The notes below the pieces were generated by a model that worked only from the letters and a program-made list of their open reading frames with translations, was not told the origin of the DNA and made no database searches. A stretch of 64,000 nt of DNA from Candidatus Bathyarchaeota archaeon (GTDB lineage: Archaea; Thermoproteota; Bathyarchaeia; 40CM-2-53-6): positions 160,001 to 224,000 of the forward strand of contig CAVTBR010000003.1 of NCBI GenBank assembly GCA_963733055.1. The letters run 5' to 3'. Positions 2,416 to 4,756 of the stretch are shown here, one piece after another (positions within the stretch are counted from its first letter, which is position 1; every line of letters begins with the position of its first letter). The position numbers were made by a program, and so were the translations under genes.

Positions 2416-2491
2416 ATCGTTTTTGCAAAAATAACGGTTGTTATGTCATATGTCATCAGGTCAGGTGGACAATAGATGGAGCGTCTCAGAT

Positions 2492-2637
2492 TGGAGCCGG
2501 GGATGGGATTCGAACCCACCTCAGCGATACTACGCTTCTATACTGCGGGTTGCGGCAAGCGTATTCTTCTGCAGCCCGCCGCCTGAACCGTTCGGCATTC
2601 AGTGACCCCTAGACGGAGTCCTAAGGTCAACCCCGGC
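2492..2637 (-). tRNA. tRNA-Cys(GCA) with about 70 nt of intervening sequence, probably three introns; CCA encoded
   Basis: Acceptor GCCGGGG/CCCCGGC-T-CCA (U73); D arm GCC-GAACGGTTCA-GGC; anticodon arm GCGGG-CTGCAGA-CCCGC; T arm GTGGG-TTCGAAT-CCCAT. Inserts at about 2629-2598, 2568-2551 and about 21 nt in the variable region. Confidence 0.82.
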
Positions 2638-2673
2638 GTTCGCCCCGGCGAGCGAATCGTTGCGGCTGTAGCT

Positions 2674-2681
2674 CTAATAAA
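2674..2681 (-). promoter_or_regulatory. Putative TATA box of tRNA-Cys
   Basis: TTTATTAG on the minus strand about 37 nt upstream of the mature tRNA 5' end. Confidence 0.45.
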
Positions 2682-2707: not shown

Positions 2708-3019
2708 GTGGCGTCGGTGACGACGGAGGATCGACCAGAGAATATGTTCTTCAAACTTTGCTCTGACCACCTCTCCATTGAAGCCATCCCAAGGAGGACC
2801 ATTCGAGTCGACATTGCTGAATTGAAGCAGCGAGCACTATCGGGACTCGAGCTCATGCTCTGGACGCCGCACTTTGTCGTCCTAAGAAACCGCGAGGGAC
2901 AGGAGATAACGTTGAGAAAGGATGGGAGAATGATAATAAGAAAGGTCGCATCGGAGCCGGTTGCCAAGCGAGCGGCCGCAGAAGTTATGGATGCAGTCCG
3001 CGGGCTGTCCCAGAATTAG
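2708..3019 (+). CDS. Small protein resembling the C-terminal domain of the neighbouring ThiF/MoeB
   Basis: KLCS...EITLRKDGRMIIRKV aligns by eye with WLCG...EVSLFRKGRMLIKNV of the ThiF C-terminus. Confidence 0.7.
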   Translation: MASVTTEDRPENMFFKLCSDHLSIEAIPRRTIRVDIAELKQRALSGLELMLWTPHFVVLRNREGQEITLRKDGRMIIRKVASEPVAKRAAAEVMDAVRGLSQN

Positions 3020-3726
3020 AGTCGAACGTTGAGAATTCGGGCTTCTTCTAGATCCCTCTTCACCATGGCATCCACATCTAGGGCCGTTTCAACTTCCGTT
3101 AAACGGTCCCGCCTTGCCGACGTACTCGGGTTGTCCGTTGGCACACCGCAAGTCGCGACGCCTGGGCGAATCGAAATCGGATAGGTTCCTATCTTCTTCG
3201 CATATTCCTCGATCTTCAGCTTATTCATTCCAACCAATGGCCTCAGCACCCGGACCTTGTTCAGCACGCTGTCTGCCGCCACAATATTCTGCAGTGTTTG
3301 GCTTGCCTTCTGACCGAGAGCGTCACCGGTCACAATCGCTTGGCATCCATGCCGCAGAGCAATCTCTTCCGCAACTCTAAACATGATCCGCCTTGAGAGT
3401 ATACACGCATATTTCGTTGGGCATTTTGACAGAATGGCCTGCAGGTCAGGGGAATGCGCCACGACATAAATTCGGGCATCCTCGATTCCAGCAACGCGGC
3501 AGACGGCTCTTATCGAATCCAAGGCAATGCCCTCGGCCGCTTGGTCGCAGAGCGGATAATTATCGAAGTAGGAGAAGATCGGCTCAACACCCTTCCGAAT
3601 CAGCAGCCACGCCGCAACGGGAGAATCGATTCCCCCCGAGACGAGGAAGAGCGCCTTACCAGCTAGTCGCGGTCGGGGTTGCTCGGCAGATATCGTGGTG
3701 GTTTCAAGCGCCATCCTTTGCATCAA
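3016..3726 (-). CDS. thiI: ThiI-family PP-loop sulfurtransferase, catalytic domain only (no THUMP)
   Basis: SGGIDSPVA PP-loop, TGDALGQKASQTLQN, RPLVGMNK, AKKIGTY. Confidence 0.85.
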   Translation of the reverse strand: MMQRMALETTTISAEQPRPRLAGKALFLVSGGIDSPVAAWLLIRKGVEPIFSYFDNYPLCDQAAEGIALDSIRAVCRVAGIEDARIYVVAHSPDLQAILSKCPTKYACILSRRIMFRVAEEIALRHGCQAIVTGDALGQKASQTLQNIVAADSVLNKVRVLRPLVGMNKLKIEEYAKKIGTYPISIRPGVATCGVPTDNPSTSARRDRLTEVETALDVDAMVKRDLEEARILNVRL

Positions 3727-4756
3727 CTTTTGGTGATTATCTCGAAGATTCCTCGTGAGACCTCAAGTGCTTCCGCCTCGTCTTTCACGTTTTTGATGAG
3801 CATTCTACCTTTCCTAAATAGGCTTACTTCATGACCCTGGTAATCGAAGACTATCACCATTGGTGTGGTCAAGAGAAGTGTGTGTTTTCCACCGATTGTC
3901 TTTGCTATCGACTGCAGATCCAGGGACTGCGGTGATTCTGGGTTTACGTTCGCAGTGCTTGAGCCGCAGAGCCAAGCCAATTTTGACGGATACGCAACCA
4001 CGCTGGGTGCTTTGATTTGGCAAACATTGCAGTCCTTCCGTATCGCCAAAGGGATCGTTCGAAATTCTGATTGTGCAAAATCGAACACCATTAACTTCCC
4101 TTTCGATGCTGGCTCGATTTCCGCAAGGACCTTTATCGCTTCCATCGCTTGAAGCGCTCCAATTATCCCCGTCGTAGCACCCAAAACACCTCTCGTGTCG
4201 CACGTTGGTAAGTCGGCGTCGATAAGGTCGGGGAGGAAACACTCCAGGCAGGGAGTTTCAGGTACTTTCAACGTGGCCACGTTCCCCTCCATTCCAATCG
4301 CGCCACCGAAAATTAGCGGGACCTGCTTTTCCGTACAAAACCTGTTTATCACATATCGGGTTTGCATATTGTCAAGGCCGTCGACGACGCAGTCCGCGCC
4401 GGTGAGGGCAGACGAGACGTTTTCTGCGCTAATATTATCGGGAATCGGGTCAACTTTTACTGTTGGGTTGATTTGTTGTATCCTGCGGGCCGCAGCCTCA
4501 ACTTTCGGATATCGGAGGTCCGAGACCGAGTAGAGAATCTGTCTGTGAAGATTATTAATTTCCACAGTATCCTGGTCCACAAGAGTTAGTCTCCCCACAC
4601 CCGCGAGTGCTAGGTAAAGAGCAGACACGCTTCCCAAACCCCCCAAACCAACAACAGCCACTTCCGCGGTCCTCAACTTCTCCTGCCCCGAGGTCCAAGC
4701 TCAGAGAGTATAGTTTGTCGACTATAGTACCCCGCCGTGTCAAATGCGGCTGACAT
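3723..4756 (-). CDS. ThiF/MoeB (E1-like) adenylyltransferase with C-terminal extension; 1-nt deletion in a G run at 4686-4689
   Basis: GLGGLG, NLHRQILY, DGLDN, CxxC pairs, TCDTRGVLG. The N-terminal YYSRQTILSELG lies in another frame from ATG 4756. Confidence 0.88.

Follow-up and report, generated by a model that had tools for sequence, protein, structure and literature searches.

How can a tRNA precursor be spliced when its first intron follows base 8, and the central helix of the splicing motif has to come from the same bases that form the acceptor stem? This question is raised by a minus-strand locus at positions 2637..2492 of the 64,000-nt stretch of archaeal DNA analysed here (hereafter the window, to which all coordinates without a contig name refer), which an initial annotation had read as a 146-nt tRNA-Cys gene with about three introns and with a duplicate of its acceptor strand in the 5' leader. 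The window belongs to a genome of 2.88 Mb, assembled in 3 contigs, with 50.5% G+C.

An interrupted tRNA-Cys gene

The locus was parsed with a BHB scan, which looked for two bulges of 3 nt around a central helix of 4 bp and took cleavage to fall past the second bulge base, and with a splice solver, which scores the cloverleaf remaining once inserts are removed. Together they yielded a single best parse, a tRNA-Cys(GCA) gene of 146 nt, encoded CCA included, with introns at positions 8/9, 37/38 and 48/49. ARAGORN made no call on the unspliced 146 nt and recognised a tRNA-Cys(gca) of 76 nt when the three inserts were taken out. Exon 1 (2630..2637; tRNA bases 1-8) was delimited by scan and solver and by orthologues free of intron 1, in which the series acceptor-T-G-D stem is read continuously, matching the exon 1 end. 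The solver placed exon 2 at 2569..2597 (bases 9-37, with the D arm, the 5' strand of the anticodon stem and the anticodon GCA), exon 3 at 2540..2550 (bases 38-48, with the 3' strand of the anticodon stem and a variable loop of 5 nt) and, together with ARAGORN, exon 4 at 2492..2519 (bases 49-73, with the T arm and the 3' acceptor strand, plus the CCA, encoded at 2494-2492), the discriminator, base 73, being a T at 2495. All four exons are collinear, on the minus strand and within 146 nt, so that the gene is neither split nor permuted, and once the inserts are removed the cloverleaf is canonical, with anticodon GCA and discriminator T as expected, as for BHB introns. The reading as a 146-nt tRNA-Cys with three introns is thus borne out by the solver, by ARAGORN after splicing and by the relatives described below.

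Intron 1, of 32 nt (2598..2629, minus strand), was found by scan and solver at position 8/9 with a relaxed BHB, which reproduces exactly the first insert of the initial annotation. Its central helix, CGGG/ACTG with 3/4 pairs, uses acceptor bases 3-6 and is accompanied by bulges GTT and AAT, an outer helix of 2 bp and an inner helix of 6 bp. Since the intron begins with T and base 9 is also T in the gene under study, junctions at 8/9 and 9/10 yield an identical product; BHB geometry and relatives with G at base 9 favour 8/9. Intron 2, of 18 nt (2551..2568, minus strand; scan and solver), lies at the canonical position 37/38, where an insert with one mismatch had been proposed, and its central helix, CTGC/GCCG, does contain one, T.C. 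The third insert, previously described as 20-22 nt without fixed boundaries, is now defined by the scan as 20 nt (2520..2539, minus strand) between bases 48 and 49. It carries a strict BHB, the best motif in the gene, with 4/4 central pairs, an outer helix of 6 bp and an inner helix of 2 bp.

Matches to the locus were found in 38 of 41 related genomes, with the three-intron form in 20 of the 22 belonging to the same genus, and the 27-nt core of exon 2, at up to 2 mismatches, is present in 59/105 genomes of the order (control pattern, 0). The comparison set consisted of 60 distinct tRNA-Cys orthologous sequences, 35 with the 8/9 intron and 25 without it. Exons are near-invariant across these relatives; intron interiors diverge in length and sequence, their helices being preserved by compensatory changes. 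Intron 1 varies between 16 and 33 nt among its 35 orthologues and is variable in sequence, with central pairs 3, 4 and 5 kept in 35/35, the G6.A mismatch also in 35/35, and compensatory exchanges of G-C with A-T and of C-G with T-A in the inner helix. In intron 2, conservation extends to 33/33 orthologues for pair 32, 31/33 for pair 34 and 32/33 for pair 35, with pair 33 mismatched as T.C in 17/33; the four central pairs of intron 3 are all kept in 33/33. The complementarity that had been pointed out between inserts 2 and 3 (TACGCTT/AAGCGTA) is present in the gene, its 7 nt being reached by 2 of 200 shuffles, but it is seen in only 1 of the 33 distinct orthologues carrying both inserts and shrinks to 4 and 2 nt in the two closest relatives, and is read here as chance.

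The identity of the gene and its intron junctions are held with high confidence, and the junctions are regarded as shown because relatives lacking one or another insert reveal the uninterrupted joints. In addition to the exon 1 end, the variable loop runs straight into the T stem in orthologues without intron 3 (L026-L030). A search of sequencing runs for spliced tRNA-Cys joints returned none; the single RNA-library contig on the locus, of 154 nt, covers 2492-2635 in unspliced form with 7 differences and may be DNA, and a DNA contig of one relative is without introns 2 and 3.

Neither ARAGORN with its default settings nor Rfam with its gathering thresholds reported a tRNA within the 64-kb window, and the Rfam tRNA model at a loose threshold gave the locus 15.6 bits, its cut-off being 29. 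Such blindness of standard tools is what a decayed tRNA-Cys with junk as inserts would produce, a reading that is close to refuted: exons are invariant and helices change in a compensatory manner over dozens of species, the promoter block is conserved, the spliced form is a perfect cloverleaf, and this is the only tRNA-Cys found in the genome. The exon-2 core matches there once and no second tRNA-Cys-like locus was detected, so that the intact gene elsewhere that had been envisaged as the companion of a decayed copy was not found. Judged by the constraint kept on exons and helices, which is not that of a tRNA pseudogene, the locus is the functional tRNA-Cys(GCA) gene of this genome and not a decayed copy. 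In an automatic annotation the genome could appear to have no tRNA-Cys, and many of its other tRNAs are likewise missed.

On the 5' side, a TATA-like box, TTTATTAG (2674..2681, minus strand), was read from the sequence ~25 nt 5' of the leader copy, and a block, GGTTTATTAGAGCT, is conserved 5' of the tRNA-Cys orthologues in the genus. Archaeal promoter geometry relates the distance from the TATA box to the transcription start, and it is on this geometry that TTTATTAG would serve as promoter and fix the start site. On the 3' side, a run of five T (2427..2431, minus strand), ~60 nt downstream of the gene, is a possible archaeal terminator, and a scan for bacterial-type terminators downstream of tRNA-Cys found none. 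Neighbouring genes on the minus strand encode an AhpC/TSA-redoxin-like protein downstream (1606-2415), a ThiI-family protein just upstream (3016-3726; PF02568, E 1e-51) and a ThiF-family protein, also upstream (3723-4676; E 2e-70). The ThiI family includes the enzyme thiolating tRNA U8, and the presence of such a neighbour beside a gene with U8 at its 8/9 splice site may be a coincidence.

Splicing endonuclease and intron load of the genome

A permissive splicing endonuclease and a genome rich in non-canonical tRNA introns had been proposed from the tRNA-Cys locus, and the subunit type of EndA and the intron positions of all tRNA genes were suggested as ways to verify it. PF01974 and PF02778 each match two loci of the genome above cut-off, corresponding to two EndA paralogues. 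The first (C3:228599-229165; 189 aa) carries the Tyr/His/Lys motif and is closest, by phmmer, to the crenarchaeal catalytic subunits 3p1z_B, 2cv8_A, 3ajv_B and 2zyz_B (E 4e-39 to 5e-28), which are Aeropyrum, Sulfolobus and Pyrobaculum enzymes; its N-terminal loop is present, with a Lys aligned with residue 44 of 3p1z_B (Aeropyrum K44). The second (C1:1338732-1339328, minus strand) aligns with EndA folds and has no catalytic His at the 1a79 position. The nearest protein-atlas clusters of EndA are labelled Nitrososphaerota and Bathyarchaeota. A two-subunit (alpha-beta)2 heterotetramer of crenarchaeal type, with the Crenarchaea-specific loop, is predicted from these sequences. Enzymes of the (alpha-beta)2 type are tied to relaxed motifs and non-canonical positions, and K44 to broad specificity, in the available text of PMC5829648. 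RtcB and the archaeal RNase P RNA were also found in the genome.

With the Rfam tRNA model only 13 genes are recovered across the 2.88 Mb, and ARAGORN with introns allowed makes 33 calls, several of them with absurd introns. Brute-force splice solving (146/1163 acceptor-pair candidates) gave up to ~51 for random candidates versus 53-59 for real tRNAs, and a list of 32 tRNA genes was curated, ~6 of whose parses are of low confidence. Just 2 of the 32 parsed genes are uninterrupted, the others requiring from one insert to three or more, at positions that include 14/15, 18/19, 21/22, 22/23, 25/26, 29/30, 30/31, 43/44, 45/46 and 59/60. The endonuclease type, together with the interruption of most parsed genes at many positions, supports the proposal of a permissive enzyme in an intron-rich genome. 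CCA is encoded in nearly all parsed tRNA genes, with CTA after Ala-CGC (C1:1552244) and after an Asn-type gene.

A copy of the 5' acceptor strand in tRNA leaders

The duplication noticed in the tRNA-Cys leader was also substantiated. A copy of the 5' acceptor strand, GCCGGGG (2643..2649, minus strand), read from the sequence and from orthologues, is separated from base 1 by the 5-nt spacer CGAAC (2638..2642, minus strand), which in relatives is variable, of 4-13 nt. An exact 7/7 copy of a gene's own 5' acceptor strand, lying up to 60 nt upstream, was then sought in 31 tRNA leaders, its expected chance being ~0.0025 per gene. Four leaders contain one, with four different 7-mers: those of tRNA-Cys, an Asn-type tRNA (C3:707551-707678, plus strand, L205; spacer of 13), a Pro-type tRNA (C2:238942-239161, plus strand, L206; spacer of 18) and tRNA-Glu-CTC (C3:664778-664892; spacer of 8). 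Only five genes have their first intron at 8/9 or 10/11, for which the central splicing helix must come from acceptor bases 3-6 or 5-8, respectively, and these four all belong to them. The remaining 26 genes show no exact copy (0/26), two of them having 6/7. In a genome-wide search for a 7-mer repeat with a complementary 3' end, which returned 113 matches versus 138 in the reversed sequence, the tRNA-like matches stood out. In all four genes the copy starts 22-25 nt past a TATA-like box, a distance that, by archaeal promoter geometry, would put the copy right at the transcript's 5' terminus.

A direct repeat of this kind admits a further parse, in which the upstream copy serves as exon 1 and the spacer plus the second copy make up a fourth intron at ~7/8, because the spliced product would be identical. 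In tRNA-Cys the self-complementary CCGG could indeed form a 4-bp helix with suitably placed bulges. However, the other three repeats lack a self-complementary 4-mer in the register that leaves T at base 8, and with spacers of 4-5 nt there is hardly room for a loop, which makes a fourth intron of this sort very improbable.

The fifth gene with an early intron, tRNA-Leu(GAG) (C1:211219-211370, minus strand, L207; intron at 8/9), has a 6/7 copy match of its own that is not kept in relatives. Its leader carries, just 5' of base 1, the 7-mer G[GA]CCTGG, complementary to the D-loop CCAGGTC in 13/13 orthologues (L268-L280), which could lengthen the outer helix and tether the exon in another way. Two small conserved hairpins are seen further upstream in the same leader.

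Two of the copy-bearing genes display additional interruptions. Beyond its 8/9 intron, which is seen together with the copy across the whole order, tRNA-Asn(GTT) has a second intron near 32/33, accompanied by a third one at 38/39 in some members of the genus; its anticodon stem has a conserved A31.C39 mismatch. In the Pro-type gene L206, of 220 nt, introns were placed at 10/11 (22 nt) and 59/60 (25 nt); 173 nt are then left, a surplus of ~97 nt, for which the solver, with up to 3 further inserts, gave no convincing parse. Its introns may number four or more, three being the highest count given in the available parts of the literature.

Among relatives, which are not independent and therefore make cross-tabulations of copy and intron overstate the support, the copy accompanies the 8/9 intron of tRNA-Cys in 35/35 orthologues (34 exact, one with 6/7) and is found in 0/25 of those without that intron, whose best match is 5/7. 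The set with both includes a genus in which the 8/9 intron is the only one. For Glu-CTC the copy is seen in 18/18 genes with the 10/11 intron and in 0/11 genes of other families without it; one Glu-CTC of the same genus (L223, genome G022) keeps the copy and has no 10/11 intron, and may represent a recent intron loss. Asn genes (L238-L267) have both intron and copy in 30/30, over at least six families (27 exact, three with 6/7), and Pro-type genes have the copy in 20/20 (15 exact, five with 6/7). Spacers, of 4-18 nt, vary freely, the copy being retained, and 9 of 10 variant copies differ only at base 7, the would-be end of the helix; one variant, C to T, still pairs with G. Acceptor strands are invariant within each tRNA family, and hence no covariation signal between copy and 3' strand is possible. 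When the Asn repeat was scanned over the phylum, 94/401 genomes matched, the control pattern being about equally frequent in many of them; within the order, 5/5 sampled relatives matched, with 0-1 control matches. A scan of wider contigs for the repeat pattern gave, among the matches listed, chance ones only, in G+C-rich bacteria.

The joint gain and loss of copy and intron, and the one genome in which the copy is found without the intron (L223), would also be consistent with a passive scar of intron entry, left by a short duplication at insertion and devoid of present function. A scar would nonetheless be expected to decay as the spacer does, whereas the copy stays exact or near-exact over several families while the adjoining spacer changes freely, its few changes sit at the helix end or preserve pairing, and its distance from the TATA-like box is fixed at 22-25 nt in all four genes. 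Such an origin without function is thus considered quite unlikely.

A proposed role for the copy and its relation to known systems

Folding predictions with the leader included give the helix between copy and 3' acceptor strand probabilities of 1.00 for Glu, where it extends to 10 bp, 0.998 for Pro, 0.997 for Asn and 0.145 for Cys, the splicing helix reaching 0.989 in Glu and 0.48 in Pro. When the leader is omitted, the native stem is predicted at 0.91-0.998 and the splicing helix at ~0. Among 34 tRNA-Cys orthologues the copy helix has a median probability of 0.99, being at or above 0.85 in 27/34; the native stem is favoured (0.72-0.92) in the gene under study, its two closest relatives and orthologue L016, with 0.83 for the native acceptor stem versus 0.15 for the copy helix in the gene itself. 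The central splicing helix of Cys and Asn, with its conserved mismatch, was not predicted by the nearest-neighbour model either with or without the leader. The control in which the copy was reversed is void for Asn, the 7-mer of which is identical when read backwards.

Considering that (i) the splicing helix of an intron at 8/9 or 10/11 would draw on the 5' acceptor strand, for which a G+C-rich acceptor stem of 7 bp would compete, and (ii) a 5' exon of 8-10 nt (8 nt in Cys) would be left unattached after intron excision, splicing motif and acceptor stem would be mutually exclusive and the tiny 5' exon would be adrift, and the leader copy is proposed as the solution to both problems. We infer its pairing, its role and the order of processing as follows. 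Transcription would proceed from the TATA-like box and start at or just 5' of the 7-nt copy. The copy would then pair with bases 66-72, the 3' acceptor strand, releasing the true 5' strand (bases 3-8) for the motif and anchoring the short 5' exon to the rest of the precursor through cutting and joining. The (alpha-beta)2 EndA would excise the introns at 8/9, 37/38 and 48/49, and RtcB would ligate the exons. After ligation the true strand would displace the copy and RNase P would cut at base 1, of a tRNA whose CCA is already encoded in the gene. In this manner the copy would enforce splicing ahead of RNase P.

The same association of copy with early introns, the predicted dominance of the helix between copy and 3' strand in most precursors and the presence of RNase P RNA would also suit a copy that mainly times processing, masking the genuine RNase P site for as long as the early intron is present and giving no help to the endonuclease or to tethering. 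This possibility overlaps with that of a surrogate acceptor strand, to the extent that sequence cannot separate them, but the splicing helix of Glu and Pro drops out of the predictions when the copy is missing, a sign of direct action on the motif, and timing as the main role is judged unlikely. Against a surrogate acceptor strand speak the native stem favoured in the tRNA-Cys under study, the splicing helix of Cys and Asn that the model does not predict, the early intron of Leu-GAG with no conserved exact copy and the copy of L223 that stands without an intron. The balance leans slightly towards the copy acting as a surrogate acceptor strand. The explanation as a whole, that is, a functional three-intron gene processed by EndA and RtcB with the copy as surrogate strand, is regarded as reasonably probable, and there would be about an even chance that a dedicated cis element at the 5' end of the transcript makes introns in the first 8-10 bases spliceable across the order.

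If the surrogate-strand reading is true, these tRNA genes include their leader as a functional element open to selection, and an acceptor strand repeated in direct orientation immediately 3' of the promoter becomes a simple annotation flag that predicts early introns. It would also offer a concrete answer to how the endonuclease handles introns in or beside the acceptor stem, with a fixed order of processing implied.

Multi-intron archaeal tRNA genes are already a known kind. According to the available text of PMC4090602, PMC4033280 and PMC8450103, tRNA genes of Thermoproteales contain up to three introns each, and Thaumarchaeota have many non-canonical ones. The genes described here resemble them in their canonical and non-canonical BHB introns, their relaxed motifs and an (alpha-beta)2 EndA with the loop, as far as these sources and the accessible part of PMC5829648 describe them, and differ in the host lineage and in its 50% G+C. 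Positions 8/9 and 48/49 are absent from the position lists in the accessible parts of the reviews, a comparison limited to these lists. In Asgard archaea interruption is heavier still, most tRNA genes being interrupted, often twice or more, in the portion of bioRxiv 10.64898/2026.10.13.758758 available; these archaea share with the present genome the heavy interruption, the many inserts in or near the D arm and their being missed by standard software. They belong to a different phylum, and in that same portion the word 'leader' is absent and acceptor or junction inserts appear only as 'other'.

A leader copy of the acceptor strand goes unmentioned in the accessible text of PMC4090602, PMC4033280, PMC8450103 and PMC5829648, and no description of one was found in the parts of the literature open to search. 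Two known arrangements come near to it. tRNAscan-SE 2.0 scans 60 nt of flanks, since introns near tRNA ends use flanking sequence (PMC8450103, as far as its available text goes). The present genes are alike in that the leader joins the fold of the precursor for splicing, and Leu-GAG fits that kind as described in the same text. On the contrary, the leaders of Cys, Asn, Glu and Pro would pair with the far 3' end and not with the neighbouring exon. In the split tRNAs of Nanoarchaeum equitans, as presented in the accessible parts of PMC4090602 and PMC4033280, a helix outside the tRNA likewise holds the pieces and presents a relaxed BHB. There, that helix is a leader-trailer duplex, itself cut out, according to the same parts; here, everything lies in cis on one transcript, and a direct copy of the acceptor strand would pair with the 3' end of its own tRNA.
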